From the NCBI GenBank assembly GCA_005223075.1, contig NJBO01000003.1:9902-73901 (forward strand): 64,000 nucleotides of DNA, read 5' to 3'. Positions 3,807 through 63,340 of this stretch are shown here, in pieces. The translations under genes and the position numbers were made by a program. How positions within the stretch are numbered: the first letter of the stretch is position 1; the number at the start of each line of letters is the position of its first letter. The notes below the pieces were generated by a model. It did no database searches. It saw nothing but the letters and a program-made list of their open reading frames with translations, and had not been told where the DNA came from. Source of the DNA: a candidate division TA06 bacterium B3_TA06. Its GTDB lineage: Bacteria; Hydrothermota; Tepidihabitantia; B3-TA06.

Positions 3807-4243
3807 AGCCCAATCCTCCTTACTTCGCGCTCCATGGCGCGGCGCTTAAGCGTCTCGCGCTTGTCAATTCTCTGCTTGCCCCGGCAGACGCCTATCAAAA
3901 GCTTGGCAATCCCGCGGTCGCTGAAGTAGAGCCTGAGGGGAATTAGCGTGTAGCCTCTGCGCTGGGTCTTGCCGTAGAGCTTCTTTAACTCATGGCTATG
4001 CAGAAGAAGCTTGCGCTTGCGCAGTGGTTCGGGGACGTCGAACGTTGCCTTTCTGTACGCTGCGATGTGCATTCCCACGATGTATGCTTCGCCTTCCTGG
4101 ATTATGCAGTATGCCTCCTTAATCGATGCCTGATGGTCACGCAGGGACTTGACCTCCGAGCCTACGAGCACAACCCCTGCTTCTAAGGTATCCTCTATGA
4201 AGTAGTCGTGCCGTGCCCGGCGGTTCTCAGCTATGACGTTCAT
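3803..4243 (-). CDS. smpB: SsrA-binding protein
   Basis: 146 aa, MNVIAENRRARHDYFIEDTLEAGVVLVGSEVKSLR typical SmpB N-terminus. Confidence 0.9.
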   Translation of the reverse strand: MNVIAENRRARHDYFIEDTLEAGVVLVGSEVKSLRDHQASIKEAYCIIQEGEAYIVGMHIAAYRKATFDVPEPLRKRKLLLHSHELKKLYGKTQRRGYTLIPLRLYFSDRGIAKLLIGVCRGKQRIDKRETLKRRAMEREVRRIGL

Positions 4244-4248
4244 GTAAA

Positions 4249-4277
4249 AGTGTAGTCTAGAAATGGGCTTCTGTCAA
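4249..4277 (-). promoter_or_regulatory. Putative sigma70-type promoter abutting smpB start (leaderless-type)
   Basis: Minus strand reads TTGACA-N17-TACACT, then 5 nt to the smpB ATG (4241-4243). Confidence 0.4.
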
Positions 4278-4392
4278 CCCTTGCGGACTTTTGCGCTCCT
4301 CGATTTGGAAAATAAAGGGGTAAAATCGTGCCACGATTAAAGATAAACATGCTACAAACTCGTCAGGTTTACATTGCACTCGTCACGATTAT

Positions 4393-4428: not shown

Positions 4429-4526
4429 TAAAAAAAAAGCTGGTCAAAAGGTAGTCAAAAGCTGGACAAAAGATGGTCAGAAGTTGGACAAAATTAGAGT
4501 GATTTGGGAAGTTCTCTGGGTTTTTT

Positions 4527-6529: not shown

Positions 6530-6779
6530 ACTAAAATGTGGCGCAGACTCTCCAGTCTGCGCGTTTATTCTCTCCATCAGAACAGGCTGGAGAGCCTGTT
6601 CCACAGTCTAAGAACCCGTTGACAGTGCTTGACATGCATGTCACTGCTTCCTATACTCCGAGTGTGAAAAACTTCCCTCGTAAAGTAATCACCCTCCTCT
6701 CTTATCCCCTACCCGACTGCCCCAGACGGTGGGATTAACAGGGCACGCTGTCCCGTTGAGGGAGGGGAAGATCAGAACT

Positions 6780-7062: not shown

Positions 7063-7090
7063 TTGACACCCGCGTCTGCCTACCTATACT
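7063..7090 (+). promoter_or_regulatory. Putative promoter TTGACA-N16-TATACT ending 6 nt before nadE start
   Basis: ttgaca 7063-7068, tatact 7085-7090; nadE GTG at 7097. Confidence 0.45.
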
Positions 7091-7096
7091 GCGCAT

Positions 7097-8776
7097 GTGG
7101 ATAGGTTCCCAAAGATAGCGCTGTGCCAGATCAACCCGACGGTGGGCGATCTACGCGGCAACGCGGCAAAGATAGTCGAATGGATCAAAAATGCCGAGGG
7201 ACAAGAGGCTGAGTTAATAGTCTTCCCTGAGCTTGTCCTTACCGGCTACCCGCCAAAAGATTTATTGCTCAAGACCCGCTTCCTTGAAGAACAGCGCCAG
7301 AGGCTTACCGAGATCGCTAAGATCACAGGTGATACTCCGGTCATCGTGGGCTGCGTGGATTTTACGCCTCGTAAGGAGGTGCGAGGCCAGAACCTATACG
7401 ACCTTTCGGCTCGAATAAGTGAGGGAAGAAGACTTTACAATGCCGCGGCAGTCCTTCGAGATGGCAAGGTTGAACGCTTCATTCATAAGAAATACCTACC
7501 TAATTATGACGTATTCGACGAAAAAAGGTACTTTGAAAGTCAATTCTGGCGCCAGAATCCTGTAATCGCCCTAAGGAACGGAACCAATGTGATGATTACT
7601 ATTTGCGAGGATATCTGGGTCGATAGAATTCTGAGTAAAATAAATTGGGCGAAATCGGACAAAGGTGCCGATCTCTTAGTAAACATCTCCGCCTCGCCCT
7701 TCTACGCCCGCAAGTTTCAAGCCAGGCTGGACTTATTGTCAACCAGAGCAAAGGAAGCCGGTCTGCCCCTTATCTACGTCAACATGATCGGCGGCCAGGA
7801 CGATTTGATCTTCGACGGTCGTAGCCTGGTGGTGGATGCAGGTGGCAGGATTGTAGGATTGGCCAAGGGATTTAAGGAGGATTTGTTTGTATACAATGGT
7901 GAGGATAAGGAAGTTAAACCTGAGATTGAGGAGGTGGGTGAAATCTGGCACGCGTTAACCCTGGGCCTGGGCGACTACGCTCATAAGAACAGCTTTTCAA
8001 AGGCTGTTCTCGGCGTCTCAGGGGGTATCGACTCGGCCCTAGTCGCCGCCTTAGCATCCGAGGCATTGGGGCCGGAGAACGTTCTGGGTCTGGTCATGCC
8101 CTCCAGCTACACCTCAAAACAGAGTCTCAAGGATGCTTTACTCCTATGCAACAACCTGGGCATCAAGACCGAACCCATATCCATAGACCCCCTGTTCGAG
8201 ACCTATCTTGCCACCCTGAAGGACCACTTCGCGGGCCAGGAACCCGACAACACCGAGCAGAACATCCAGGCGCGCATAAGGGGCAACCTTCTGATGGCAT
8301 TTTCCAACAAGTTCGGGTATCTGGTGCTGGCCACCGGCAACAAGTCTGAGCTTGCCGTGGGTTACGCAACTTTATATGGCGACATGTCAGGCGGTTTGGC
8401 TCCCATAGGTGACGTGCCCAAAACCACAGTCTATGCGCTTGCCCGCTGGCTCAACGAGCGTGAGCAGACCGACCAGATCCCCATCGGTATCCTGGAGCGC
8501 GCCCCATCTGCAGAGCTTGCGCCTGATCAAAAGGATGCCGACGACCTGCCGCCCTACGAGCTGCTGGATCGGGTGCTTGAGCTTTATATTGAAGAGAACC
8601 TATCCTCCAAGGAGATTATAGCTAAGGGATTCGATGAGGGACTGGTGCGCTCGATTATCAGCCGGATTGACCATTCCGAGCACAAACGTCGCCAGGCCGC
8701 ACCGGTATTGAAAATCACTCCAAGAGCATTCGGTTTTGGCAGAAGAATGCCGATAACGAATAGGTACGAGGGGTAG
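7097..8776 (+). CDS. nadE: Glutamine-dependent NAD+ synthetase
   Basis: 559 aa; N-terminal CN-hydrolase domain plus C-terminal NAD synthetase domain (GVSGGIDSALVAALA P-loop-like motif); GTG start. Confidence 0.9.
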   Translation: MDRFPKIALCQINPTVGDLRGNAAKIVEWIKNAEGQEAELIVFPELVLTGYPPKDLLLKTRFLEEQRQRLTEIAKITGDTPVIVGCVDFTPRKEVRGQNLYDLSARISEGRRLYNAAAVLRDGKVERFIHKKYLPNYDVFDEKRYFESQFWRQNPVIALRNGTNVMITICEDIWVDRILSKINWAKSDKGADLLVNISASPFYARKFQARLDLLSTRAKEAGLPLIYVNMIGGQDDLIFDGRSLVVDAGGRIVGLAKGFKEDLFVYNGEDKEVKPEIEEVGEIWHALTLGLGDYAHKNSFSKAVLGVSGGIDSALVAALASEALGPENVLGLVMPSSYTSKQSLKDALLLCNNLGIKTEPISIDPLFETYLATLKDHFAGQEPDNTEQNIQARIRGNLLMAFSNKFGYLVLATGNKSELAVGYATLYGDMSGGLAPIGDVPKTTVYALARWLNEREQTDQIPIGILERAPSAELAPDQKDADDLPPYELLDRVLELYIEENLSSKEIIAKGFDEGLVRSIISRIDHSEHKRRQAAPVLKITPRAFGFGRRMPITNRYEG

Positions 8777-9385: not shown

Positions 9386-9413
9386 TTGACCTTTCCCTAA
9401 CCTCCCCTATACT
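9386..9413 (+). promoter_or_regulatory. Putative promoter TTGACC-N16-TATACT, 9 nt before start codon
   Basis: ttgacc 9386-9391, tatact 9408-9413; ATG at 9423. Confidence 0.4.
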
Positions 9414-9422
9414 TACCCCCGC

Positions 9423-10172
9423 ATGAAGAAGACCCGACCGGGTGAGGTGATAATCCTTGCCTCAGGTGCCATGGTTCTTGCCGCACTAGTCGCTTTCGTG
9501 GTCTGGCAGTGGCCCCAGATTTCCCACCTTTTCTCAAACCCCACCGAGATCCGTTCTTACATTGCCTCGTTCGGCATCTGGGCACCGGTGATCTTCGTCG
9601 CCCTTTACGTCTTCCAGATCATCGTTGCCCCGATCCCTGGCACGCTCATGAACTTCGCAGGAGGGCTTATGTTCGGCTGGGGAGGCGGGGTAGGGCTTTC
9701 CTGGATCTCCTGCGTGATAGGTGCCGCGATCTCCATCTCCATCATGAGGGCGTTTGGCCGCTCGCTCATGCGCATCTTCATCTCCGAGGAGAAGCTGGAT
9801 AGGTTCGATAAATATGTCAGGACACGAGGATGGGCATATCTGTTCCTCCTCTACATCGTCCCCAACCCACTTGGCGACACGGTAAACTACATGTCCGCGC
9901 TTTCGGATATCAAGCTGTGGAAGCTTCTTCTGATGGTTGCTGTGGGCCGTATCCCCTCGCTCATCGTGGGTAGCTGGCTGGGCAAGCAGTCAATCCACTT
10001 CTCAACCATCCACTGGATAATTCTGGCTGCGGGGTTTGTAGGACTCCTGGTAGGTGTTTACCTTATCCACAAGCCACTTGAGAACCTGGCGATGAAGCTA
10101 TCGGCAAAGCTCTTGCCGCCACAAATCAACCCCAAGCGTTCGCCACGTGACCGCGCGTGGATGCCGAAATAA
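9423..10172 (+). CDS. TVP38/TMEM64 (DedA-superfamily) membrane protein
   Basis: 249 aa, multiple TM helices, motif pattern typical of DedA/TVP38 proteins (FQIIVAPIPGTLMNFAGGLMFGWGGG). Confidence 0.7.
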   Translation: MKKTRPGEVIILASGAMVLAALVAFVVWQWPQISHLFSNPTEIRSYIASFGIWAPVIFVALYVFQIIVAPIPGTLMNFAGGLMFGWGGGVGLSWISCVIGAAISISIMRAFGRSLMRIFISEEKLDRFDKYVRTRGWAYLFLLYIVPNPLGDTVNYMSALSDIKLWKLLLMVAVGRIPSLIVGSWLGKQSIHFSTIHWIILAAGFVGLLVGVYLIHKPLENLAMKLSAKLLPPQINPKRSPRDRAWMPK

Positions 10173-10685: not shown

Positions 10686-10713
10686 TTGACAACCCTCACA
10701 ACCGCCTTATGCT
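10686..10713 (+). promoter_or_regulatory. Putative promoter TTGACA-N16-TATGCT ending 6 nt before purM ATG
   Basis: ttgaca 10686-10691, tatgct 10708-10713, ATG 10720. Confidence 0.4.
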
Positions 10714-10719
10714 TCTGGT

Positions 10720-11718
10720 ATGGATTACCGTAAGGCAGGCGTGGATATCGCGACGCTGGATAGGATCAAGAAGAGGATGTCGAGAGCGGTGAAGCGAACG
10801 TTCACCGAGAACGTGGTTACCGAGTTCGGGCACTTCGGCGGAGGGTTTCGCCTGAAGGGGTATCGCAAGCCGGTGCTTGTGGCATCGACCGACAACATCG
10901 GCACCAAGGCCAAGGTCGCGAGACTGGCAGGCATCTACAATACAATTGGCGCGGATATGGTCAATCACTCGTCCAACGACATCATGTGCACTGGTGCTAC
11001 ACCTCTCTTCATACTGGACTATCTAGCGTTCACCAAGCTTGATGCAGACTACATCGCACAGATCGTAGAAGGATTTGCCAAGGCATGTAAGAAGGAGAAG
11101 GTGGTCCTCATCGGCGGCGAGACCGCCCAGCTTCCTGGTGTTCACAAACCTGGGGACTTCGACTTGTCGGCTACCGTGGTCGGGGTTATCGAAGAAGGTA
11201 AATTGATCGACGGTAGCTCCATCAAACCTGGTGATGTGGTCATAGGGCTGCGATCAACCGGTCTTCATACCAACGGCTACAGCCTGGCAAGGAAGGTGCT
11301 TCTTGAGGGCAACGCCCCCTTCCCTCTGGACGCTCTGGTCCCGGGGACCAAAAAGACGGTGGGCCAGGCGCTTCTGGCCGTGCACAAATCCTATCGGAAA
11401 GAGGTTGAGGGGGTGAAGCCGCTTCTTAAGGGCATCGCCCACATCACCGGCGGCGGGTTCCGCGGCAACATCTCCCGAATCCTGCCGGATGATCTCGACT
11501 GCGTGATCGAGCGCAAGAGCTGGAAGGTTCCTGCTGTCTTTAAACTTATCCAGGAGCGCGGCAATGTGACCGATACCGAGGCCTACCGGGTGTTCAACAT
11601 GGGGATAGGGATGGTGCTGTTCGTAAGGTCGAAGGACGCTGAGGGGGTACGCGAGAAGACACGTGGTATCCTCATCGGCAGGATAGTGAAAGGCAAAGGC
11701 AAAGTACATCCAGCATGA
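10720..11718 (+). CDS. purM: Phosphoribosylformylglycinamidine cyclo-ligase (AIR synthetase)
   Basis: 332 aa; MDYRKAGVDIA N-terminus and PurM-type fold motifs. Confidence 0.9.
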   Translation: MDYRKAGVDIATLDRIKKRMSRAVKRTFTENVVTEFGHFGGGFRLKGYRKPVLVASTDNIGTKAKVARLAGIYNTIGADMVNHSSNDIMCTGATPLFILDYLAFTKLDADYIAQIVEGFAKACKKEKVVLIGGETAQLPGVHKPGDFDLSATVVGVIEEGKLIDGSSIKPGDVVIGLRSTGLHTNGYSLARKVLLEGNAPFPLDALVPGTKKTVGQALLAVHKSYRKEVEGVKPLLKGIAHITGGGFRGNISRILPDDLDCVIERKSWKVPAVFKLIQERGNVTDTEAYRVFNMGIGMVLFVRSKDAEGVREKTRGILIGRIVKGKGKVHPA

Positions 11719-14404: not shown

Positions 14405-14432
14405 TTGACATCACCTCCCTTCATTATATTAT
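14405..14432 (+). promoter_or_regulatory. Putative promoter TTGACA-N16-TATTAT ending 5 nt before serS ATG (leaderless-type)
   Basis: ttgaca 14405-14410, tattat 14427-14432, ATG 14438; no SD present. Confidence 0.45.
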
Positions 14433-14437
14433 ACCCC

Positions 14438-15691
14438 ATGATTGATCCCAAGAAGATTCGCGAGAACCCTGATGAGATTCGCAAGCTTCTGGCACGCCGA
14501 AGGTGTCCGGTCTCGGTGGACGAAGTTCTGGCGGCAGACGAGGAGCGGAGAAAACTGCAGGCAGAACGTGATACGCTGAGGCACGATCTGAAAGAGGCGT
14601 CCGATGCCATCGGTCAGCTCAAGCGCGAGGGCAAAGATGCATCCGGGGTGATGACAAAAACCAAGAAGCTCTCTGCTAAGACCAAGGAGCTGGATGGTAA
14701 GCTCTCGGAGATCGAGGCACGCTTCGAAGAGTTACTCTGGCAGCTGCCCAACCTGCCCGATCCGGGCTCGCCGGATGAAGATACCGTACTAAGGACGTGG
14801 GGAGAAAAACCAGAATTCGACTTCCAACCCGCCGATCACGTAACCATCTGCGAGAGACTTGAGCTTTGCGACTTCCGCTACGCGGCATCTTACGCCGGTG
14901 CACGTTTTGCCGCCTATACAGGCGATGGCGCGCTCCTCCTGCGTGCGCTGGTAAACCTCTGCCTTGATCTGCACACCAGAGAACACGGTTACAAAGAGGT
15001 CTTCCCGCCGGTATTAGCCCGTGCTGAATCGGCAAACGCCGCCGGGCAGCTTTCCAAACTTGAGGATATGTACGCGCTCAAGGACGATCCACTTTATTTA
15101 ATCCCAACCTCGGAGACAGCACTCATCAACCTGCATATGGGGCAAGAGATCAAGGAAGAAGACTTACCTCTTAAATACACCGCCTACACCTCCTGCTTCC
15201 GCCGCGAGGCAGGAACCTACGGCACCCAGACCAAAGGTCTCTTCCGCATACATCAGTTCGAGAAGGTGGAGCTTGTGCAGTTCGCGCATCCTGAGCACTG
15301 GCACCAGGCTTTCGATGAAATCCTTTCTAATGCTGAGAAGGTCCTTCAGCTTCTCGAGCTACCCTACAGGGTTAAGGCGCTCTCCCCAACCGAGGCCGCG
15401 TTCCAGGCATCACTCACCTACGACATCGACGTGTGGGCTGCAGGTGCCGAAGATTGGCTAGAGGTCTCCTCGATCTCCAATTGCGCCGACTTCCAGGCAC
15501 GTCGCAACAAGACGCGGCTGAGGCTCGCAGACGGCAGCTTGATCCATCCACACATACTCAACGGTTCGGGCACCGCGTTCCCCAGGCTCATCATCGCAAT
15601 CGTCGAGAACTACCAGCAAGCGGACGGCAGCATAAAAGTGCCTGACGCTCTGCGTCCCTACATGGACGGCAAGGAGCATCTGGGCAGATGA
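14438..15691 (+). CDS. serS: Seryl-tRNA synthetase
   Basis: Start placed at ATG 14438 (MIDPKKIRENPDE, typical SerS N-terminus); ORF-track start 14405 is an upstream in-frame TTG lying in the promoter. Confidence 0.9.
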   Translation: MIDPKKIRENPDEIRKLLARRRCPVSVDEVLAADEERRKLQAERDTLRHDLKEASDAIGQLKREGKDASGVMTKTKKLSAKTKELDGKLSEIEARFEELLWQLPNLPDPGSPDEDTVLRTWGEKPEFDFQPADHVTICERLELCDFRYAASYAGARFAAYTGDGALLLRALVNLCLDLHTREHGYKEVFPPVLARAESANAAGQLSKLEDMYALKDDPLYLIPTSETALINLHMGQEIKEEDLPLKYTAYTSCFRREAGTYGTQTKGLFRIHQFEKVELVQFAHPEHWHQAFDEILSNAEKVLQLLELPYRVKALSPTEAAFQASLTYDIDVWAAGAEDWLEVSSISNCADFQARRNKTRLRLADGSLIHPHILNGSGTAFPRLIIAIVENYQQADGSIKVPDALRPYMDGKEHLGR

Positions 15692-17578: not shown

Positions 17579-17606
17579 TTGACACGTTAAGAACGCCCGT
17601 TATACT
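17579..17606 (+). promoter_or_regulatory. Putative promoter TTGACA-N16-TATACT for the 17768-19799 operon
   Basis: ttgaca 17579-17584, tatact 17601-17606. Confidence 0.5.
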
Positions 17607-19818: not shown

Positions 19819-19846
19819 TTGACAGTTCCAAAGCCCCAGATATACT
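19819..19846 (+). promoter_or_regulatory. Putative promoter TTGACA-N16-TATACT upstream of the aminotransferase gene
   Basis: ttgaca 19819-19824, tatact 19841-19846; ~130-nt leader with agatgt...acatct hairpin. Confidence 0.45.
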
Positions 19847-26295: not shown

Positions 26296-26745
26296 ATGCA
26301 TAACTCCAAAAAACTCATACTCGCCGTCCTGGCAGTTATCCTGCTGCTGGGAGCCACTCCGGCGTTCGCTCAGCTGGGCGGAACCTGGGAGGGCATAGGT
26401 AGGGGCGAAGCTTACCCGCCCTGTCACCCTCCTATACACCCCTGGCAGACGTGGAAGGGCGAGATCCCGGCCACCCAAGATGTCTTCACCGGCGAATGGT
26501 GGGATGCGGACGGCAATCACGGCACATTCAAGGGCGTGGTGGAGTTCTCACCCATTCCTGAGATAGCATACGCTGAAGGCGAATGGACATGGTACGACCC
26601 CACAGGCCACTCTCAGCAACCAATAGTCGGCGGCAAGTTCAAGATGACGTTCTACATCCTGGAAAAAAGATGCGAAGGCACCTGGACATCCATCTGGCCC
26701 TCACCCAGCGATCACGGCACCATGAAAGGCTGGAAGGTAGATTAA
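26296..26745 (+). CDS. Array paralog 1: small Sec-secreted Trp/Cys-rich protein, subtype A
   Basis: 150 aa; start placed at ATG 26296 (SD aaggagg); signal MHNSKKLILAVLAVILLLGATPAFA; PPCHPPIHPWQTWKGEIP ... GTMKGWKVD. Confidence 0.7.
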   Translation: MHNSKKLILAVLAVILLLGATPAFAQLGGTWEGIGRGEAYPPCHPPIHPWQTWKGEIPATQDVFTGEWWDADGNHGTFKGVVEFSPIPEIAYAEGEWTWYDPTGHSQQPIVGGKFKMTFYILEKRCEGTWTSIWPSPSDHGTMKGWKVD

Positions 26746-26809
26746 CCTTCCATGAAACTCGGAGGGGCAGATTTCTGCCCCTCCTCACAGATCACAAAAG
26801 GAGTAAGAG

Positions 26810-27253
26810 ATGAGTAACTTCAAAAAACTCACGATCGCCGCGCTCGCGGTGATCTTTCTGATCGGAGCAACGCCTATTGCCGCCGAGCTCGACGGCATCT
26901 GGGAAGGCCATGGCGATGGAACCTGGCGGCCACCAAGCGGCATAGTACCTGTTCACCCCTGGCAAACCTGGAAAGGCACCGTCGAGAACGGACGCTTTTA
27001 CGGGGAGTGGTACGATAGCACAGGCGCCCACGGCAGATTCCAAGGCGTCATACCATCCTTAACCCAAGAGGTAGCATACTGCGAAGGCTTCTGGACGTGG
27101 GTAGATGAAGGTTGCGACCCACCACGGGAGATCACCGTAGGTCCGTTCGAGATGGATTTTCACTACGTCATTGAAACATGCAGGGGCGCATGGTGGAGTG
27201 AACTTACCGCCGTCCCGCAAGGACACATGTGGGGCCGAAGGACAGGCCCGTAG
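26810..27253 (+). CDS. Array paralog 2, subtype B-like
   Basis: 147 aa; signal MSNFKKLTIAALAVIFLIGATPIAA; HPWQTWKGTVENG ... CEGFWTWVD. Confidence 0.7.
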   Translation: MSNFKKLTIAALAVIFLIGATPIAAELDGIWEGHGDGTWRPPSGIVPVHPWQTWKGTVENGRFYGEWYDSTGAHGRFQGVIPSLTQEVAYCEGFWTWVDEGCDPPREITVGPFEMDFHYVIETCRGAWWSELTAVPQGHMWGRRTGP

Positions 27254-27326
27254 GGCATAATAGAAACCAAGCAGGGGGCGGGGTTACTCGCCCCCTCATA
27301 AACCTAAAACCTCAAAGGAGGAACAA

Positions 27327-27773
27327 ATGAGCAACTCCAAAAAACTCATAATCGCCCTCGCCGTGATCTTCTTGGTTGGGGCAACACCTGCCTTGGCCGA
27401 TCTCGATGGTATTTGGGAAGGCTATGGTAATGGCAGCTACTACTTACCTGACGGTAGCATCATCTACCCATGGCAAAGCTGGAACGGTACTGTCGAGAAT
27501 GGAGTCTTCAGCGGCTCCTGGGAAGATGACGAAGGCAACTCCGGCGGTTTCACAGGAGGCATCACATGCTTCTTCACTACTGTCCCACCCTCATATACGT
27601 TTGCCGGCTGCGAAGGAACCTGGACGTGGATTGACCCCAGCGGCTTAGAACCCATTGAACTAGGGAGCTTCTGGATGACGTTCAACGTAGACCTTGACAC
27701 CTGCTGGGGCGAATGGTTGCCTTACACTAATGCTCAGGGTGGAACCATGTGGGGCTGGAGGATAGGAGACTGA
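27327..27773 (+). CDS. Array paralog 3, subtype B
   Basis: 148 aa; YPWQSWNGTVENG ... CEGTWTWID ... GGTMWGWRIGD. Confidence 0.7.
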   Translation: MSNSKKLIIALAVIFLVGATPALADLDGIWEGYGNGSYYLPDGSIIYPWQSWNGTVENGVFSGSWEDDEGNSGGFTGGITCFFTTVPPSYTFAGCEGTWTWIDPSGLEPIELGSFWMTFNVDLDTCWGEWLPYTNAQGGTMWGWRIGD

Positions 27774-27846
27774 GGCATAATAGAAACCAACCAGGGGGCG
27801 GGGTTACTCGCCCCCTCATAAACCTTAAACCAAAAGGAGGAACAAA

Positions 27847-28302
27847 ATGAGTAACTCCAAAAAACTCCTCATCGCCCTGGCTGTGATACTTGCAGTCGGG
27901 GCAACGCCCCTCCTCGCACAACTTGAAGGACCGTGGGCAGGCAATGGCGAAGGAAGCTGCAAGACACCCACCGGAATCACTATCTACCCTTGGCAGGAGT
28001 GGGACGGCTTCGTGGAGAATGGAGCCTTCGACGGCAGTTGGTGGGACGGCGACAACGGCGGCAACTTTCACGGCGACATAATATCCATCAGCACCCCAGT
28101 CCCACCCGCGGAACCACATGACGTAGCATACTGTGAAGGCACCTGGACATGGGTAAATGACGAGGGGGAGGAGATATCTATGGGCCAGTTCTGGATGAAC
28201 TTTGACCTCCTCTACGGAACATGCGAAGGTGAATGGTGGCCTTGCAATCGCCCTGAGCCTTGGGGCCCGGGAATCATGTGGGGCTGGAGGATAGGAGACT
28301 GA
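27847..28302 (+). CDS. Array paralog 4, subtype B
   Basis: 151 aa; YPWQEWDGFVENG ... CEGTWTWVND ... IMWGWRIGD. Confidence 0.7.
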   Translation: MSNSKKLLIALAVILAVGATPLLAQLEGPWAGNGEGSCKTPTGITIYPWQEWDGFVENGAFDGSWWDGDNGGNFHGDIISISTPVPPAEPHDVAYCEGTWTWVNDEGEEISMGQFWMNFDLLYGTCEGEWWPCNRPEPWGPGIMWGWRIGD

Positions 28303-28375
28303 GGCATAATAGAAACCAAGCAGGGGGCGGGGTTACTCGCCCCCTCATAAACCTTAAACCTCAAAGGAGGAACAA

Positions 28376-28813
28376 ATGAGCACCCCAAAAAAAATCCTGC
28401 TAACCGCTTTGGCGGTGATCCTTTTACTAGGGGCCACGCCTATTGCCGCCCAGATCGCAGGAGTCTGGGAGGGCACCGGTAAAGGCGCAGCTTACCCGCC
28501 CTGCCACCTACCTATATATCCATGGCAGAAATGGATAGGCGAGATACCAAACTCTGAAGACGTCTTTTTCGGCGAGTGGAAAGACACCCTTGACAACCAC
28601 GGCAGATTCGAAGGCAAGCCTGCACCTTACTCCACTCCTGATGCGAAGGTGTTCAAAGGCTACTGGACCTGGGAAACCCCCGAAGGGATATTCAAAGGCG
28701 GCGAATTCACGATGACCTTTTACTTCTTGGAAGGCGAATGCAAGGGCACCTGGACATCCATCTGGCCTTCGCCGGGCAAGCTGGGAACCATGAGAGGCTG
28801 GAAGGTGCACTGA
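28376..28813 (+). CDS. Array paralog 5, subtype A
   Basis: 145 aa; PPCHLPIYPWQKWIGEIP ... GTMRGWKVH. Confidence 0.7.
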   Translation: MSTPKKILLTALAVILLLGATPIAAQIAGVWEGTGKGAAYPPCHLPIYPWQKWIGEIPNSEDVFFGEWKDTLDNHGRFEGKPAPYSTPDAKVFKGYWTWETPEGIFKGGEFTMTFYFLEGECKGTWTSIWPSPGKLGTMRGWKVH

Positions 28814-28880
28814 AGCATACAACCAACCAGGGGGCGGCCCTCCGCCCCCTATAAACCTTAAACCTCAAAGGAGGAACAAA

Positions 28881-29318
28881 ATGAGTAACCCCAAAAAACT
28901 CCTCATCGCCGCGCTTGCGGTGATCTTCCTGCTCGGCGCAACGCCCCTTGCCGCCGAGCTAGACGGGTTCTGGGCAGGAACTGGCACTGGCTGCTGCCAT
29001 CCAGAGTCCACCACCATCACCATATACCCCTGGCAGACATGGGACGGCTTCGTCGTGAACCACGAGATCTTTCACGGTGAGTGGCAAGATAGCTTAGGAC
29101 ACCAAGGCACCTTCGAAGGAAGAGTCGTCCAGATAGACTCAACCTATGCGGTTTTCGAAGGCACGTGGAGATGGACTGACCCCACCATACTCATAATCCC
29201 TCCTGTTATAGGCGAGTTCCATATGGACTTCGATCTTCTCACCCGCACCTGCCTGGGCGAATGGTTCTACCATGAGGACTACGGAACCATGCAAGGACAA
29301 AAACTGGAGACAAAATAA
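28881..29318 (+). CDS. Array paralog 6, divergent B-like
   Basis: 145 aa; GCCHPESTTITIYPWQTWDGFVVN ... GTMQGQKLETK. Confidence 0.7.
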   Translation: MSNPKKLLIAALAVIFLLGATPLAAELDGFWAGTGTGCCHPESTTITIYPWQTWDGFVVNHEIFHGEWQDSLGHQGTFEGRVVQIDSTYAVFEGTWRWTDPTILIIPPVIGEFHMDFDLLTRTCLGEWFYHEDYGTMQGQKLETK

Positions 29319-29393
29319 GAAAGAACAGACAAACCAACCAGGGGGCGGGGTTACTCGCCCCCTCATAAACCTTAAACCTCAAAGGAGGAACAA

Positions 29394-29834
29394 ATGAGCA
29401 CCCCAAAAAAAATCCTGCTAACCGGTTTGGCGGTAATCCTTTTACTAGGGGCCACGCCGCTTGCCGCCCAGATCGCAGGAAGATGGGAGGGTACTGGTAC
29501 AGGCGAAGCTTACCCGCCCTGCCACCCGCCTATACACCCCTGGCAGATCTGGATGGGCGAGATCCCGCTCACTCAGGATGTTTTCACAGGCGAATGGTGT
29601 GACGCGGACTGCAATCACGGCACCTTCAAGGGCGAGATAGCCCCTTTCTCAACTCCAGAGGAAGCATACTGTGAAGGTTATTGGACGTGGGATGATCCTT
29701 CCAGCCCGTCCATCATTGTAGGCCATTTCAAGATGACGTTCTACATCCTGGAAGGAATATGCGAAGGCACCTGGACATCCATCTGGCCATCGCCCAGCGG
29801 TCCCGGAACCATGAAAGGCTGGAAGATAGACTGA
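29394..29834 (+). CDS. Array paralog 7, subtype A
   Basis: 146 aa; PPCHPPIHPWQIWMGEIP ... GTMKGWKID; 5' end nearly identical at nucleotide level to paralogs 5 and 12. Confidence 0.7.
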   Translation: MSTPKKILLTGLAVILLLGATPLAAQIAGRWEGTGTGEAYPPCHPPIHPWQIWMGEIPLTQDVFTGEWCDADCNHGTFKGEIAPFSTPEEAYCEGYWTWDDPSSPSIIVGHFKMTFYILEGICEGTWTSIWPSPSGPGTMKGWKID

Positions 29835-29907
29835 GGTATACCTCGACAGACCATCAGGGGGCGGCCCTCCGCCCCCTTACAAACCTTAAACCAAAAGGAG
29901 GAACAAA

Positions 29908-30342
29908 ATGAGTAACTCCAAAAAACTCCTCATCGCCGCGCTTGCGGTGATCTTCCTCGCAGGGGCTACGCCTCTCGCCGCCCAGCTCGCAGGAGTCTGG
30001 GCAGGCACGGGCGAAGGCTGCTGCAGCCCTCCCGGAACTACCATCTACCCTTGGCAGACGTGGAAGGGTGAAATACCCAACAGCCAAGACGTGTTTTCCG
30101 GCAAGTGGTGGGACGCAGATAGCAACCGGGGCACCTTCCACGGAAAGATAATAATCTCCAGTGTCACCGAAGCATACTGCGAAGGTATCTGGAACTTAGA
30201 TGACCCTTCAGGGGCTTCAATCATTGGAGGTGATTTCAAGATGACATTCTACATCCTGGAAGGAACATGCGAAGGCACCTGGATATCCATCTGGCCCACC
30301 GCCTTACCCGCAACCATGAGAGGCTGGAAGGTAGAACCGTAA
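29908..30342 (+). CDS. Array paralog 8, A/B mosaic
   Basis: 144 aa; B-type signal peptide with A-type body (YPWQTWKGEIPNSQDVFSGKWWD ... TMRGWKVEP). Confidence 0.7.
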   Translation: MSNSKKLLIAALAVIFLAGATPLAAQLAGVWAGTGEGCCSPPGTTIYPWQTWKGEIPNSQDVFSGKWWDADSNRGTFHGKIIISSVTEAYCEGIWNLDDPSGASIIGGDFKMTFYILEGTCEGTWISIWPTALPATMRGWKVEP

Positions 30343-30406
30343 AGTCACAACCTAGGGGGCGGGCTTGTGCCCCCTCATAAACCTCAAACCTCAAAGGAGG
30401 AACAAA

Positions 30407-30856
30407 ATGCACAACTATAAAAAACTCATACTCGCCGCCCTGGCAGTTATCCTGCTGCTGGGAGCCACTCCGGCGTTCGCTCAGCTGGCCGGAACCTGGG
30501 AGGGCACTGGTAGGGGCGAAGCTTACCCGCCCTGCCACCCTCCTATACACCCCTGGCAAAACTGGATAGGCGAGATCCCGAACTCTCAGGATGTGTTTTT
30601 CGGCGAATGGTGGGACTCGGACTGCAATCACGGCACCTTCAAGGGCGAAATAGCCCCTTTCTCCACTCCAGAGGAAGTATACTGTGAAGGCGAATGGACA
30701 TGGTACGACCCCACAGGCTCCTCTCACCAACCAATAGTCGGCGGCAAGTTCAAGATGACGTTCTACATCCTGGAAGGAAGATGCGAAGGCACCTGGACCT
30801 CCATATGGCCATCGCCCAGCGAGCACGGAACCATGAGAGGCAGGAAGGTACACTGA
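30407..30856 (+). CDS. Array paralog 9, subtype A
   Basis: 149 aa; start placed at ATG 30407 after SD aaaggagg; ends GTMRGRKVH. Confidence 0.7.
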   Translation: MHNYKKLILAALAVILLLGATPAFAQLAGTWEGTGRGEAYPPCHPPIHPWQNWIGEIPNSQDVFFGEWWDSDCNHGTFKGEIAPFSTPEEVYCEGEWTWYDPTGSSHQPIVGGKFKMTFYILEGRCEGTWTSIWPSPSEHGTMRGRKVH

Positions 30857-30925
30857 ACCTTAACGCCGAGCGGGGACGGGTTTCCATCCCCGCTCGGGAT
30901 AAACCTTAAACCAAAAGGAGAAGCA

Positions 30926-31354
30926 ATGAGTAACTCCAAAAAGCTAATGCTCACCGCCTTGGCGGTGATCTTTCTGATCGGAGCGACGCCTCTCTTCGCC
31001 GATCTCGACGGCATCTGGGAAGGCTACGGCGAAGGAAGCTGCGAGACACCCGCTGGAACCATCATCTACCCCTGGCAAACCTGGAACGGAACCGTTGATG
31101 AATACGGGTACTTCTCCGGCGAGTGGGAAGACTCGGACGGCAATCAAGGCACCTTCGAAGGCTGCATGGCGTCCCTGAACCCCCCAGTCTGCCCGGGGGT
31201 ATGGACATGGAGAGACGATTCGAGTCTCGAACCCATCGAGATGGGCCTATTCCAGATGGTCTTTTACGAGGTCCAAGGAACATGCAACGGCGAATGGTGG
31301 CCGTACTCTGGCGCTCAGGGTGGAACCATGTGGGGCTGGAGTATAGGAGACTAA
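30926..31354 (+). CDS. Array paralog 10, subtype B
   Basis: 142 aa; YPWQTWNGTVDEYG ... GGTMWGWSIGD. Confidence 0.7.
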   Translation: MSNSKKLMLTALAVIFLIGATPLFADLDGIWEGYGEGSCETPAGTIIYPWQTWNGTVDEYGYFSGEWEDSDGNQGTFEGCMASLNPPVCPGVWTWRDDSSLEPIEMGLFQMVFYEVQGTCNGEWWPYSGAQGGTMWGWSIGD

Positions 31355-31425
31355 GGCATAATAGAAACCAACCAGGGGGCGGCCATCCGCCCCCACTTAA
31401 ACCCTAAACCTCAAAGGAGGAACAA

Positions 31426-31875
31426 ATGAGTAACCCCAAAAAAATCCTCATCGCCGCGCTTGCGGTGATCTTCCTCGCAGGGGCGACGCCGCTTCTTGCC
31501 CAACTCAACGGTACATGGGCGGGCGAAGGAGAAGGCGTTTGCTCTCCGCCTCCCCCTATACCTACCGACTTCCCCATCTATGCTTGGCAGAACTGGAAAG
31601 GTCTGGTTGAGGATAATGAAGTCTTCTACGGCGAGTGGTACGATAACCGCTGTAACAACGGCACCTTCAAAGGCGAGATCGTATTCGTAACTCCCGAGGA
31701 TGCATACTGCGAAGGCGAGTGGCACTGGTTCGACGAACGCTACGACCCTCCGCGTGTCTACTACATGGGACCGTTTTCGATGAAGTTCAAGCTGGAAGAA
31801 GCAATATGCTACGGTGAATGGCGGACTTACTACAGTAATGAGAGCGGAACCATGAAAGGAGAAAAGATAGACTGA
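31426..31875 (+). CDS. Array paralog 11, divergent
   Basis: 149 aa; FPIYAWQNWKGLVEDNEVFYGEWYD ... GTMKGEKID. Confidence 0.7.
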   Translation: MSNPKKILIAALAVIFLAGATPLLAQLNGTWAGEGEGVCSPPPPIPTDFPIYAWQNWKGLVEDNEVFYGEWYDNRCNNGTFKGEIVFVTPEDAYCEGEWHWFDERYDPPRVYYMGPFSMKFKLEEAICYGEWRTYYSNESGTMKGEKID

Positions 31876-31953
31876 GGATATACCGGGAAACCGGCTAACC
31901 CAGGGGGCGGGCTTCCGCCCCCTGATAAACCCTAAACCTCAAAGGAGGAACAA

Positions 31954-32400
31954 ATGAGCACCCCAAAAAAAATCCTGCTAACAGGTTTGGCGGTGATCCT
32001 TTTACTAGGGGCCACGCCGCTTGCCGCCCAGATCGCAGGCACATGGGAAGGCACCGGAACCAGCTGCTGCTGTCCACACCCGGGCACGATCATCTACCCC
32101 TGGCAGGCGTGGGTAGGTGAGATCCCCAACTCCCAGGACGTCTTCACCGGCGAGTGGAAAGACAGCCTCGACAACCGCGGCACATTCAAGGGCGAAATCC
32201 TCTGGATCAGCACCACCGTCGCCATCGCCAGAGGTTCCTGGTACTGGTTCGATCCTACCGGTCCCAGTCACGAACCGGTCTACGGAGGCGACTTCGAGAT
32301 GAAGTTCTACGTCTACGAGAGGGAGTGCACCGGCACCTGGACATCCATCTGGCTATCGCCCAGCGAACACGGAACCATGAGAGGCAGAAAGGTACACTAA
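31954..32400 (+). CDS. Array paralog 12, subtype A
   Basis: 148 aa; CCCPHPGTIIYPWQAWVGEIP ... GTMRGRKVH. Confidence 0.7.
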   Translation: MSTPKKILLTGLAVILLLGATPLAAQIAGTWEGTGTSCCCPHPGTIIYPWQAWVGEIPNSQDVFTGEWKDSLDNRGTFKGEILWISTTVAIARGSWYWFDPTGPSHEPVYGGDFEMKFYVYERECTGTWTSIWLSPSEHGTMRGRKVH

Positions 32401-32466
32401 ACCTAAAGCCGAGGGGGGCGCAAACCCGTCCCCCTCGGGATGAACCTTAAACCAAAAGGAGAAGCA

Positions 32467-32922
32467 ATGAGTAACTCCAAAAAGCTAATGCTCACCGCCT
32501 TGGCGGTGATCTTTCTGATCGGAGCAACGCCGCTCTTCGCAGAACTCGACGGCATCTGGGAAGGCTACGGCGAAGGAAGCTGCGAGACACCCGCTGGAAT
32601 CATCATCTACCCCTGGCAAACCTGGAACGGCAGCCTGGAGTCATGGCTCTTCACCGGCCACTGGCAAGACTTGGACGGCAGCTCCGGCGGCTTCCAGGGG
32701 GCCGTCATATCCCTCGCCAAATCCGTTGAACCGCCTTACCATACGGTTGCTCACTGCGAAGGAACCTGGACGTGGATGGATCCCAGCGGCTTAGAACCCC
32801 TCGAAATGGGTCCCTTCAATATGGAGTTCAATCTGGACATTGACACCTGCTGGGGCAACTGGTACTCCTATTCTAGCCCCGGAATTGGCGGAACCATGTG
32901 GGGCTGGAGGATAGGAGACTGA
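32467..32922 (+). CDS. Array paralog 13, subtype B
   Basis: 151 aa; start placed at ATG 32467; first ~45 codons and upstream intergenic region nearly identical to paralog 10. Confidence 0.7.
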   Translation: MSNSKKLMLTALAVIFLIGATPLFAELDGIWEGYGEGSCETPAGIIIYPWQTWNGSLESWLFTGHWQDLDGSSGGFQGAVISLAKSVEPPYHTVAHCEGTWTWMDPSGLEPLEMGPFNMEFNLDIDTCWGNWYSYSSPGIGGTMWGWRIGD

Positions 32923-32942
32923 GGTATAATAGAAACCAACCA

Positions 32943-32971
32943 GGGGGCGGGCATCCGCCCCCGATTTTTTT
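32943..32971 (+). terminator. Intrinsic terminator closing the paralog array
   Basis: gggggcgg-gcat-ccgccccc followed by gattttttta; the only array hairpin with a T-tract. Confidence 0.7.
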
Positions 32972-32974
32972 AAA

Positions 32975-33012
32975 CCCCACACGGGCGCTTTACGTGCCCG
33001 TGCGGGGACCCC
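32975..33012 (-). repeat. R1 hairpin repeat (reverse orientation)
   Basis: ccccacacgggcgctttacgtgcccgtgcggggacccc. Confidence 0.65.
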
Positions 33013-33118
33013 GGACATTCAGACTCAAAGATGGAATCTAAATCCCCGGTCAGATGCTTTAATCCTTTACCCTCTTGATTTCCCCCCATAACTGGATACA
33101 ATCCCTTAGGAGAAGTTA

Positions 33119-33643
33119 ATGAAGACGGTTGTTGTTTACTATTCCCGCTACGGTAACTCGCGGGTGGCGGCGCGCTTGATAGCAAAACATCTTCAAGCAC
33201 CCGTGCACCGCATAGAGGTCAAGCGCCACAGAGGAGTGGTTAGGTCTACGTTCTCCGCCCTTTTCGGGCGTCGTCCTGAGATCAAAACCATCCCTCTACA
33301 ACCCCAGGACTGGGACCTGATGGTAATTGTTGTTCCGATATGGTCAGGCAGGCCGGCAACACCTCTTAAAACCTTCCTTGCCGAGACACGACTTGCCGAA
33401 AAGCAGGTGGCTGTGTTCTTTTCATACACCAAAACCGATCCCCACAAACGCCCTTCGCGCTGGATGCAAAAGGTGTTGGGGCACTTCGGTGCGCGGCTCG
33501 TTGCCGTAGGCGGGTACAACATCTCCCTTAAGAATCACACCGTACTCAAGCAGCGGATCTGGGACTTCCTCGCCCAGCTCCCACCCCAAGCCATCCCATC
33601 GACTCCCTCCAAGAAATCCGCCAGGCGCAGCCCTCAAAAATAG
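33119..33643 (+). CDS. Flavodoxin-like fold protein (putative)
   Basis: 174 aa; N-terminus MKTVVVYYSRYGNS resembles flavodoxin-type phosphate-binding loop. Confidence 0.45.
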   Translation: MKTVVVYYSRYGNSRVAARLIAKHLQAPVHRIEVKRHRGVVRSTFSALFGRRPEIKTIPLQPQDWDLMVIVVPIWSGRPATPLKTFLAETRLAEKQVAVFFSYTKTDPHKRPSRWMQKVLGHFGARLVAVGGYNISLKNHTVLKQRIWDFLAQLPPQAIPSTPSKKSARRSPQK

Positions 33644-36813: not shown

Positions 36814-37447
36814 TGCGCCTCCGGATTCCTTTAAGTTTTTTCCGCAAGATAACACGCGAACGATGCAGGAGCGACTTGGACGAACCCGCTGTGATACCCA
36901 GGATTTCTGCTATCTCTGCGTGACGGAAACCCTGGATGTCATGAAGCACAAAGACGCTGCGGTAGCTGGGCGACAGGCTTGCAACGGCCTTCTCGAGCTC
37001 AATGCGTGCATCGTGATCGCGCTTCGGCGAGGCCATCCACTCCTGAAGCTCGACCGTCTTAAGCTTCTTGCGCCTCATTCGATCAATGCAGTGGTTCATC
37101 GTGATCCTGTATATCCAGGTCGAAAGCTTCGAACGACCGGCGAACTTGTGCAAGTTCTTGTAGACCTTAACAAACACATCCTGTGTCGCGTCCTGTGCGT
37201 CGGCACGGTTGGCAAACATCCTGTAGCAGAGGTTGTAAACCATAGCCCCGTGGTTGGCATAGATTTGCTCCAGTTTCTTTTCTCGTTCGCGCTCCCCCAC
37301 ATCACCGCGGGCTTGCTGGGCAGCCTGCCCGCTTGTTAGCGTTACCGTTAACCCCTCGGTTTCCATCACTCTCTTTTGACGTGAAGAACCCCTGAAAGGT
37401 TCGCTTGCTCGCCTGGATTTGCCCATATCACGAAGCCGATTCATCAC
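36794..37447 (-). CDS. ECF-type RNA polymerase sigma-70 family factor
   Basis: 217 aa; region 2 (IYRITMNHCIDRMRRKK) and region 4 (RSVFVLHDIQGFRHAEIAEILGITAGSSKSLLHRSR); true start may be ATG 37444 or a downstream Met. Confidence 0.85.
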   Translation of the reverse strand: MMNRLRDMGKSRRASEPFRGSSRQKRVMETEGLTVTLTSGQAAQQARGDVGEREREKKLEQIYANHGAMVYNLCYRMFANRADAQDATQDVFVKVYKNLHKFAGRSKLSTWIYRITMNHCIDRMRRKKLKTVELQEWMASPKRDHDARIELEKAVASLSPSYRSVFVLHDIQGFRHAEIAEILGITAGSSKSLLHRSRVILRKKLKGIRRRNGPTPV

Positions 37448-37449
37448 TG

Positions 37450-37477
37450 ACTATACGTACATATTTGCCAAATTCAA
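37450..37477 (-). promoter_or_regulatory. Putative promoter TTGAAT-N16-TATAGT abutting the sigma-factor start
   Basis: Minus strand: ttgaat (37472-37477), tatagt (37450-37455), then GTG-ATG at 37447/37444. Confidence 0.4.
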
Positions 37478-38593: not shown

Positions 38594-38621
38594 TTGATAA
38601 TCCATACAGAAATAGTATAAT
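38594..38621 (+). promoter_or_regulatory. Putative promoter TTGATA-N16-TATAAT
   Basis: ttgata 38594-38599, tataat 38616-38621, ~200 nt upstream of dfx. Confidence 0.4.
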
Positions 38622-44245: not shown

Positions 44246-44262
44246 CAGAATAGCGTTGTATA

Positions 44263-44817
44263 ATGAGCGATGATTTAATCTACAAGCAGCACAAACACAA
44301 TCCACCTCATCTGTTCATCCCCAAAGCCAAATACTTCATCACCGCTTCTACATACCAGAAAAAGCCTTTTCTAAGTTCTCATGAGAGCAAATCGCGTCTC
44401 CTGGAATCCATAATTAAAGGATGCGATAAATCCAACTGGTTATTGGAAGATTGGGTTATACTCGACAATCATTATCACCTGATGCTGCAAGCCCCTGAGG
44501 AGGATCCTGATTTATCCAAAATGATCAGTGAAATCCATCGCTTTACCGCTCTCTGGATAAAGAAAAATGCCTTGGAAGCGAAATCGGCTAAAAGAATCTT
44601 CTGGAACTACTGGGATAGATGTATTACTCACGAACGGTCTTACTTTGCCAGACTAAACTACATTTACTTCAACCCGGTAAAGCATGGATATGTCCCAAAT
44701 CCTGAAGATTATCCGCATGGGAGTTATTATTACAGAATAAAGACTGAAGAAGAACGCCTCAAAAAACTACAACAAGATTATCCTTGGGGTCGTGTCAATG
44801 TCAATGACGATTTCTAG
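44263..44817 (+). CDS. REP-associated tyrosine transposase (RAYT, IS200-like Y1 HUH family)
   Basis: 184 aa; HUH motif NHYHLML and YIYFNPVKHGYV region; flanked on both sides by REP-like palindromes. Confidence 0.7.
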   Translation: MSDDLIYKQHKHNPPHLFIPKAKYFITASTYQKKPFLSSHESKSRLLESIIKGCDKSNWLLEDWVILDNHYHLMLQAPEEDPDLSKMISEIHRFTALWIKKNALEAKSAKRIFWNYWDRCITHERSYFARLNYIYFNPVKHGYVPNPEDYPHGSYYYRIKTEEERLKKLQQDYPWGRVNVNDDF

Positions 44818-46280: not shown

Positions 46281-46374
46281 TAACCCTTCTTTCGGAAACT
46301 TCATCTCCCCTAACCACCGACCTACAATCACCCCGCGCTTGACACCCACTTATGCTCGGATATATTACTAGCCT

Positions 46375-46725
46375 ATGAGCAGGATTGAAGATTTCAAAAA
46401 AGAGCGCGAGCGGCTGCACAAGAAGCTGATGGAGTTCGCGGGAAAGAATATGAAGACGTTCCATCACCTCGACTGGCAGACATATCAAGAGGGTGCTCTC
46501 GATGCAAAGACCAAAGAGCTTCTGGGACTGGTGGCCTCGCTTGTGCTGCGATGCGAGGACTGCATCACCTACCATCTTATCAGATGCAAGGAGGAAGGGG
46601 TTACATCTGCCGAATTCGAGGAGGCCCTGATGGTGGGATTAATGGTGGGCGGTTCTATCGTAATCCCCCATCTGAGAAGGGCGGTTGATCTGTGGTGCGA
46701 CATGAAGGAGGGAAAAAATGACTGA
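46375..46725 (+). CDS. Carboxymuconolactone decarboxylase / AhpD-like family protein
   Basis: 116 aa; CEDCITYH motif typical of AhpD-like CxxC...H. Confidence 0.7.
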   Translation: MSRIEDFKKERERLHKKLMEFAGKNMKTFHHLDWQTYQEGALDAKTKELLGLVASLVLRCEDCITYHLIRCKEEGVTSAEFEEALMVGLMVGGSIVIPHLRRAVDLWCDMKEGKND

Positions 46726-51796: not shown

Positions 51797-51998
51797 GCCT
51801 ACCTCCTCTTGATTGTTTTAACCTCGGCTGCATCGAGCAGCCCCCACTTACATAAAAGAACCTGCTTCCCTCAATATAGTCTTTTTCAAAAAGATGTCAA
51901 GTGAATCGTGGGAGGCCGCGATGTTCATGCTCTTGACAGGATTAAGATATTGGGATTTCAGGAGTTGACATAAGGCCCTTCCGGAGTTAAAGTTAGAT

Positions 51999-54723: not shown

Positions 54724-54789
54724 AAATAAAACTCAACGAAAAGGAAAGGTTAGGTTGACAAAAAACATGGTCTGATTTACTCTAACCCA

Positions 54790-57621: not shown

Positions 57622-57649
57622 TTGACAAGCAGCTTCTTTGGAATAAATT
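57622..57649 (+). promoter_or_regulatory. Putative promoter TTGACA-N16-TAAATT ending 5 nt before ATG 57655
   Basis: ttgaca 57622-57627 (the ORF-track TTG start codon lies in this -35); weak -10. Confidence 0.35.
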
Positions 57650-57654
57650 TAGAT

Positions 57655-63306: not shown

Positions 63307-63312
63307 GGGATG

Positions 63313-63340
63313 ATATTAACCTTCTCTTACCCCCTGTCAA
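63313..63340 (-). promoter_or_regulatory. Putative promoter TTGACA-N16-TAATAT ending 6 nt before dnaE ATG
   Basis: Minus strand: ttgaca (63335-63340), taatat (63313-63318), ATG at 63304-63306. Confidence 0.4.

Follow-up and report, generated by a model that had tools for sequence, protein, structure and literature searches.

Architecture of promoter-abutted gene starts

How is a gene read when its promoter ends almost at its start codon? The question is raised by serS, the seryl-tRNA synthetase gene at the head of the sequence given here, which lies in a 64,000-nt stretch of contig NJBO01000003.1 from the candidate division TA06 bacterium B3_TA06 (this whole stretch is referred to below as the window). 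The serS site at 14405-14440 reads TTGACA-tcacctcccttcatta-TATTAT-acccc-ATG, and the same arrangement, a near-consensus -35/-10 pair whose -10 box ends 5-9 nt before the start codon, stands at 11 gene starts in the window. From this geometry, transcription of these genes very probably starts at the start codon or within 3 nt of it, yielding leaderless mRNAs in a mixed regime where other genes are led by a Shine-Dalgarno (SD) sequence. The 11 sites are as follows.

4241-4277, minus strand: smpB; -35 TTGACA at 4277-4272, 17-nt spacer, -10 TACACT at 4254-4249, gap 5 nt, ATG at 4243-4241
7063-7099, plus strand: nadE; -35 TTGACA at 7063-7068, 16-nt spacer, -10 TATACT at 7085-7090, gap 6 nt, GTG at 7097-7099
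9386-9425, plus strand: dedA/VTT-domain gene; -35 TTGACC at 9386-9391, 16-nt spacer, -10 TATACT at 9408-9413, gap 9 nt, ATG at 9423-9425
10686-10722, plus strand: purM; -35 TTGACA at 10686-10691, 16-nt spacer, -10 TATGCT at 10708-10713, gap 6 nt, ATG at 10720-10722
14405-14440, plus strand: serS; -35 TTGACA at 14405-14410, 16-nt spacer, -10 TATTAT at 14427-14432, gap 5 nt, ATG at 14438-14440
37442-37477, minus strand: extracytoplasmic function (ECF) sigma factor gene; -35 TTGAAT at 37477-37472, 16-nt spacer, -10 TATAGT at 37455-37450, gap 5 nt, ATG at 37444-37442
46339-46377, plus strand: carboxymuconolactone-decarboxylase (CMD)-family gene; -35 TTGACA at 46339-46344, 16-nt spacer, -10 TATATT at 46361-46366, gap 8 nt, ATG at 46375-46377
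51965-52001, plus strand: histidine phosphatase gene; -35 TTGACA at 51965-51970, 17-nt spacer, -10 TAAAGT at 51988-51993, gap 5 nt, ATG at 51999-52001
54755-54792, plus strand: IS200/Y1 transposase gene; -35 TTGACA at 54755-54760, 17-nt spacer, -10 TACTCT at 54778-54783, gap 6 nt, ATG at 54790-54792
57622-57657, plus strand: TPR protein gene; -35 TTGACA at 57622-57627, 16-nt spacer, -10 TAAATT at 57644-57649, gap 5 nt, ATG at 57655-57657
63304-63340, minus strand: dnaE; -35 TTGACA at 63340-63335, 16-nt spacer, -10 TAATAT at 63318-63313, gap 6 nt, ATG at 63306-63304

Eight of these sites had been pointed out in a first-pass annotation, and all eight are present where it placed them, on the strands it gave, each with a TTGACA-like and a TAnnnT hexamer separated by 16-17 nt and with a perfect TTGACA in six of the eight. 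That annotation had the -10 box ending 2-9 nt before the start, which was too wide: the actual gap is 5-6 nt, and 9 nt holds for dedA only. The remaining three genes with the same geometry (CMD-family, histidine phosphatase and IS200/Y1 transposase) came from our own scan. Only nadE uses a GTG start, the other 10 starts being ATG, and the match to the two hexamers is weakest at the ECF sigma site and the Y1 transposase site at 54755, each with 9/12 positions. Functionally, Pfam identifies smpB as SmpB, nadE as a glutamine-dependent NAD synthetase (CN_hydrolase plus NAD_synthase), dedA by its VTT/DedA domain, purM by AIRS and AIRS_C, serS by Seryl_tRNA_N and the class II core, the ECF gene by Sigma-70 regions 2 and 4, the TPR gene by multiple TPR families, and dnaE by PHP and DNA_pol3_alpha; smpB heads an operon of smpB, an amidase, a racemase and RNase PH.

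A possible twelfth case is the low-molecular-weight phosphatase gene at 44925, which lacks an SD and is preceded at 6 nt by a weaker promoter. A leaderless start was considered and rejected for the Y1 transposase gene at 44263, where the geometry does not fit: an extended -10 (TGTATAAT, 44255-44272) overlaps the ATG and would place it upstream of the predicted transcription start, and the gene was left unclassified. A mobile repeat carrying the promoter was likewise rejected as the source of the 11 sites, whose spacers and flanks are unrelated to one another.

Mutually exclusive start signals

Among the 63 gene starts in the window, SD sequences were scored against AGGAGG at 3-10 nt upstream. 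The first-pass annotation had claimed that promoter-abutted genes lack an SD, and none of the 11 scores above 3/6, the -10 box filling the space where an SD would lie. An SD of at least 5/6 is found at 39 of the 52 other starts versus 0 of the 11 promoter-abutted ones (Fisher P = 4e-6), and at most SD-led starts the AGGAGG is perfect and lies 4-6 nt away. The genes that had been put forward as SD-led bear this out, namely those for desulfoferrodoxin (dfx, 38831), a rubrerythrin/ferritin-like protein (45479) and an RRM protein (53909), together with a paralog array at 26296-33643.

The architecture is confined to genes that open a transcription unit, with 11 of 46 first genes and 0 of 17 operon-internal genes having it. 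Its share of units is thus 24% (11/46), or 33% (11/33) when the 13 genes of the paralog array are set aside. Strong promoters also occur before SD-led genes, where they leave leaders of 14-130 nt, and promoter-to-start gaps of 10-13 nt were not found in the window.

Excess over chance and restriction to a lineage

The promoter motifs are far more frequent than composition predicts. At a match of at least 10/12, 33 were observed against 5.0 +/- 1.9 in 100 dinucleotide-preserving shuffles of the window (6.6-fold), and at a match of at least 11/12, 14 against 0.32 (44-fold); the signal sits in the near-perfect matches and is clear only from 10/12 upward. Motif density near starts relative to background had been suggested as a check, and, run on the window and on the relatives' loci described below, it exceeds background. 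On both strands of the window, 24 of 3521 ATG/GTG triplets have a promoter 4-9 nt upstream, and 11 of the 24 are the 11 gene starts, which gives 11 of 63 gene starts versus 13 of 3458 other triplets (Fisher P = 5e-14).

To place the trait phylogenetically, we compared a clade set of 228 kb, made up of the window and eight relatives' loci (relatives ~164 kb), with a control set run through the same pipeline, 154 loci of other phyla (~1.23 Mb) from SerS and PurM searches; a metagenome PurM scan gave only relatives at most 50% identical, which were used as other-phyla controls. Gaps were counted between promoters of at least 10/12 and an ATG or GTG opening an open reading frame (ORF) of at least 80 aa. 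In the clade the resulting histogram peaks at 5 nt (18 cases) and 6 nt (12), has six further cases at 8-9 nt and holds about one per bin at other distances, so that 30 of the 36 cases within the 4-9 nt range lie at 5-6 nt, and the spacer is 16 nt in 25 of the 36; over the 1.23 Mb of controls the histogram is flat. Promoter-abutting ORF starts number 14 per 100 kb in the window, 17.6 in close relatives, 11.9 in three loci from deeper WOR-3 and 0.6-0.7 in other phyla, which makes the architecture about 20 times denser in the clade than in other phyla. Counted from the promoter side, 28 of 79 strong promoters in the clade have a long-ORF start at 4-9 nt versus 6 of 306 in the controls (P = 4e-16).

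The three deeper WOR-3 loci differ at purM. L167 (37% GC, 54% PurM identity) has TTGACT-N16-TACATT-6 nt-ATG, in L169 purM is operon-internal and SD-led, and L168 has neither a clear SD nor an abutting promoter upstream of the gene; taken together, these argue that the trait reaches beyond the Stahlbacteria clade, though individual genes seem able to switch regime. Among the control loci, L112 (metagenome contig Ga0209427_10003182; PurM 48%) has three promoter-abutting ORF starts in 16 kb (5051, 5184 and 9737), purM included, and may represent another leaderless-rich lineage or a distant WOR-3 relative.

Conservation among relatives

The closest relatives by SerS (73-94% identity) come from metagenome-assembled genomes (MAGs) labelled Candidatus Stahlbacteria or candidate division WOR-3; the next, from other phyla, are at most 48% identical. 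With 11 further relatives' loci gathered through homologues of PurM, phosphoenolpyruvate carboxykinase (PEPCK) and DnaE, conservation was tested for seven of the 11 genes, the ECF, TPR, CMD and Y1 transposase genes falling outside the comparison; the loci recovered included no orthologue of the ECF or TPR gene. In the orthologues of all seven, both hexamers and their distance to the start are kept while the surrounding DNA has diverged. The architecture is conserved in eight relatives for serS (73-94% SerS identity); in four for purM (L161, L162, L163 and the distant L167; spacer identity 34%); in three for histidine phosphatase (L164, L165 and L166; spacer identity 34%); and in two each for smpB (L161 and L162, with promoter and start identical), nadE (L161 and L162, keeping the hexamers and the GTG at a spacer identity of 25%), dedA (gap 9 nt in L161, 8 nt in L162) and dnaE (L170 and L171, 74-78% DnaE identity, keeping TTGACA-N16-TAATAT-6 nt-ATG with a diverged spacer). 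Other genes of the relatives show the same pattern, for example trkH, in which ATG and GTG alternate at the start.

The footprint was measured as mean pairwise identity over six genes with 3-9 orthologous sequences each, dnaE being assessed separately:

30 nt upstream of the -35: 43%
-35 hexamer: 99%
Spacer: 50%
-10 hexamer: 92%
-10-to-start segment: 61%
First 30 coding nt: 80%

Evolutionarily, this profile points to purifying selection on the promoter architecture in the relatives. Selection on a promoter held at a fixed offset predicts that gene-specific variants of the -10 box should be retained, as is seen for TATGCT of purM, TACACT of smpB and TAATAT of dnaE; for histidine phosphatase, three of four sequences have TAAAGT and the fourth TAATAT.

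Upstream of smpB the conservation extends further, 143 nt including the promoter (4244-4386) being identical in the window, L161 and L162, where other intergenic DNA is ~20-45% identical. This region had no significant Rfam hit, and the ultra-conserved 115 nt upstream of the promoter fold no more stably than shuffles (z = 0.17), which lends no support to a structured RNA there.

Proposed mechanism and alternative explanations

Hexamers spaced 16-17 nt apart, in excess and conserved, mark these elements as sigma-70-type housekeeping promoters. At promoters of this type transcription starts about 6 bases, give or take one, past the -10 hexamer, with a purine preferred; where 5-6 nt separate box and codon, that position is taken by the purine that opens the ATG or GTG. 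We therefore infer where transcription starts and how translation is initiated as follows. The promoters would direct RNA polymerase to begin at the first base of the start codon or no more than about 3 nt from it; mRNAs made in this way would have neither a 5' untranslated region nor an SD; and ribosomes would bind directly to the 5'-terminal AUG or GUG, as is established for leaderless mRNAs of E. coli, of mycobacteria and of Deinococcus. Roughly one in three transcription units, mostly housekeeping (smpB, nadE, purM, serS, dnaE, ECF sigma, phosphatase and transposase), would be expressed in this way, with the remaining first genes and the operon-internal genes relying on a strong AGGAGG 4-6 nt upstream.

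Several points weigh against this proposal or narrow it. The start site is derived solely from the promoter consensus of other bacteria, and since the commonest gap, 5 nt, is one below the canonical 6, transcription could start on the A or one base to either side; for the wider gaps of dedA (9 nt) and the CMD gene (8 nt), leaders of 1-3 nt are probable. The sites of the ECF, TPR and Y1 transposase genes are matches of 9-10/12 that lie outside the conservation comparison, and no Pfam domain anchors the N-terminus of the ECF or TPR protein. At a loose threshold of 9/12 the excess of promoters is small (22 versus 15.1 +/- 4.3 in the first 20 kb). The share of one third depends on 64 kb and on the way the 13-gene array is counted, and additional upstream promoters may yield leadered transcripts.

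The choice of start codon was also examined. For each of the 11 genes the proposed start is the earliest usable one in its ORF: the TGA within TTGACA is an in-frame stop in five genes, and the in-frame upstream "starts" are limited to the TTG that opens the -35 hexamer (serS, TPR) and, in the ECF gene, a GTG in the codon before the ATG. Pfam profiles set in at residue 1 in SerS (Seryl_tRNA_N position 1), 4 in SmpB, 5 in the histidine phosphatase (His_Phos_1), 6 in NadE (CN_hydrolase) and 8 in DnaE (PHP), and downstream starts would therefore truncate conserved domains. In public assemblies of the relatives, nadE, purM and histidine phosphatase are called 2-30 codons upstream of the promoter-abutting start (3966 versus 4056 and 6966 versus 6972 in L161, 6986 versus 7019 in L162, 14949 versus 14925 in L165). 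An ORF called in this way includes its own promoter, and the pattern has the look of an annotation error that recurs at leaderless genes. Gene finders whose training relies on SD signals misplace these start codons, and recognising the architecture would correct the N-termini.

Against this background, the promoters might be real and translation might nevertheless begin at a downstream in-frame start, the first codons of the ORF being an SD-less or SD-bearing leader. Gene callers do differ on these starts in public assemblies, and partial SD sequences precede in-frame downstream codons in some of the genes, such as purM (GTG 10789, AAGAGG) and dedA (ATG 9669, AGGAGG), but the deviating calls run upstream across the promoter and not downstream, the dedA alternative falls within the VTT domain, the purM alternative would cost the conserved YxKAGVD motif, and Pfam domains set in within the first eight residues of the proposed proteins. 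Moreover, the first 30 coding nt are 80% identical among relatives and, in the serS rows that were examined, most changes in this stretch fall at third positions and are synonymous, so that the first codons are evidently read as protein; we regard a downstream start as very improbable. A slightly lower probability still attaches to the idea that the motifs are chance or compositional features of AT-richer intergenic DNA, or that the TA-rich box near the start serves a longer, leadered mRNA, transcribed from a distant promoter, as an unstructured stretch or a ribosome-binding element other than an SD. It would suit the weak excess at 9/12, and A/U-rich non-SD initiation regions exist in other phyla, e.g., GeneMarkS-2 group B (PMC6028130). 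It sits poorly, however, with the 6.6-fold and 44-fold excesses at the stricter thresholds and with a spike at 5-6 nt that is confined to the clade; ribosome binding needs no TTGACA at 16-17 nt, yet the -35 is the most conserved element (99%), and canonical AGGAGG is otherwise in use.

A third alternative grants that transcripts start at these promoters but has upstream promoters or read-through supply some or most of the expression, the abutting promoters being minor or conditional. Some sites do lie shortly downstream of a same-strand gene (dedA is 78 nt past the preceding one), and a second strong promoter stands at 6629, 434 nt upstream of the nadE promoter. On a read-through transcript, though, the start codon would sit behind a -10 box without an SD and would be poorly translated in a genome where other genes have a perfect SD, and the strict conservation of the hexamers marks the promoters as a functional signal. 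We hold this alternative to be very improbable, if marginally less so than the two above; it is in any case a matter of degree and compatible with leaderless transcripts.

Comparison with known leaderless systems

Classical leaderless mRNAs of E. coli and phages, such as lambda cI and Tn1721 tetR, have a 5'-terminal AUG that is recognised directly, with no SD interaction. The same mechanistic model is proposed here, but those are isolated exceptions in an SD-dominated genome, whereas the genes described here would form a systematic, conserved class of roughly a third of units. Actinobacterial leaderless promoters, which generally have little -35 signal, also differ from those of the window and its relatives, where TTGACA is nearly perfect and the best conserved element, a 16-nt spacer is preferred and, at ~52% GC, the middle positions of the -10 are informative (TATAcT).

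The closest counterpart is the class described as group C by GeneMarkS-2, which comprises 1028 of 4769 bacteria, concentrated in Actinobacteria and Deinococcus-Thermus, in which a Pribnow box precedes the starts of operon-first genes by 6-8 nt and 25-50% of operons are leaderless while other genes keep an SD (PMC6028130). The "TA-led" genes of Zheng et al. 2011 give the same picture, with Aquificae, Acidobacteria and Deltaproteobacteria also listed (PMC3160421). As in Mycobacterium, Streptomyces and Corynebacterium, the present genes have a -10 TAnnnT box 5-8 nt from the starts of operon-first genes and no SD (PMC6028130, PMC3160421, PMC3898074), leadered and internal genes keep an SD, and GTG also serves as a start, here in nadE. 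Against the 25-50% of operons in group C genomes, the share among first genes of the 64-kb window is 24% or 33%, and the density of such starts is similar in the ~164 kb of relatives. By its sequence-level features the present case thus falls within the group C/TA-led class, from which it differs in belonging to the candidate phylum WOR-3 (Stahlbacteria clade).

In Deinococcus-Thermus, the mode termed "-10 region adjacent to ORF" (de Groot et al. 2014, as cited in PMC6028130) shares with the present one a -10 box a few bp from the ORF, a specific spacing and a large share of genes beside SD-led ones. For Deinococcus, Zhong et al. 2025 experimentally validated the role of the ORF-adjacent -10 box, which alone can act as a promoter and whose output is boosted by adding a -35 (PMC12340547), whereas here a consensus -35 is present at every site and the mode is predicted from sequence. 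The first-pass annotation had judged a mixed leaderless/SD regime to be a notable trait of the organism; the regime itself is supported, but it is not unusual, since about one in five sequenced bacteria is already documented to have it (PMC6028130, PMC3160421). A full-text search of a literature library returned no paper containing both "leaderless" and "WOR-3", and leaderless expression, known in other bacteria, is new only for the WOR-3 phylum.

Other elements in the window

Near-perfect promoters (11/12) without a long ORF start nearby lie at 6629-6657, 17579-17606, 19819-19846, 38594-38621 and 47791-47818, and that at 19819 precedes the ~130-nt leader of an operon encoding a serC-like protein, a 2-hydroxyacid dehydrogenase and a DUF1015 protein. 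Another 11/12 promoter, at 38696, precedes a ~100-nt leader before dfx. Scans of the window for tRNA/tmRNA genes and Rfam families gave no significant hits; the orphan promoters could serve regulatory leaders, small ORFs or small RNAs.

The paralog array at 26296-33643 is a tandem set of 13 genes of ~145-175 aa, each with a strong SD, separated by gaps of mostly 64-78 nt, with 196 nt before the last; the single member tested (27327-27773) had no Pfam match. Between smpB and the next gene lies an 11-bp tandem repeat, AAAAGCTGGTC, at 4435-4493 (5.4 copies), with A-tracts phased at one helical turn and a copy number that varies among relatives; bent DNA and a series of protein-binding sites are both conceivable here. 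The motif GGGGTCCCC, the core of a ~40-nt palindromic element resembling repetitive extragenic palindromes (REP; GGGGTCCCCGC...GCGAAGC...GTGGGGT), occurs 8 times versus 0.89 expected, always in intergenic DNA (4393, 4738, 5072, 14130, 33004, 34475, 46018 and 59556), and the element is also found upstream of serS in relatives. The window holds two IS200/Y1-type transposase genes (44263-44817 and 54790-55248), and together with the REP-like element these may form a pairing of REP with REP-associated tyrosine transposase (RAYT).

Implications

On balance, we think it likely that the Stahlbacteria clade and at least part of WOR-3 constitute an unrecognised leaderless-rich lineage, in which about a third of units are expressed from full-consensus promoters 5-6 nt from the start and in which the class of a gene, leaderless or SD-led, is held by selection across ~70-95% protein identity and, for purM, down to 54%. 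Our understanding of translation initiation is unchanged by this, since other bacteria have already established both the mechanism and the mixed regime. What it would add is a further leaderless-rich lineage, one that lies outside Actinobacteria and Deinococcus-Thermus and has an unusually complete promoter consensus, along with an indication that the leaderless status of a gene can persist over long divergence. For a phylum that is almost entirely uncultured, it would also allow transcription starts to be predicted to nearly the base. A cultured WOR-3 isolate now exists (PMC12285271), which makes the prediction directly testable. If it is true, WOR-3 would be unusually clean for predicting transcription starts from sequence and for correcting the start codons of MAGs, and for asking what holds housekeeping genes in the leaderless class when highly expressed ones keep a perfect SD.

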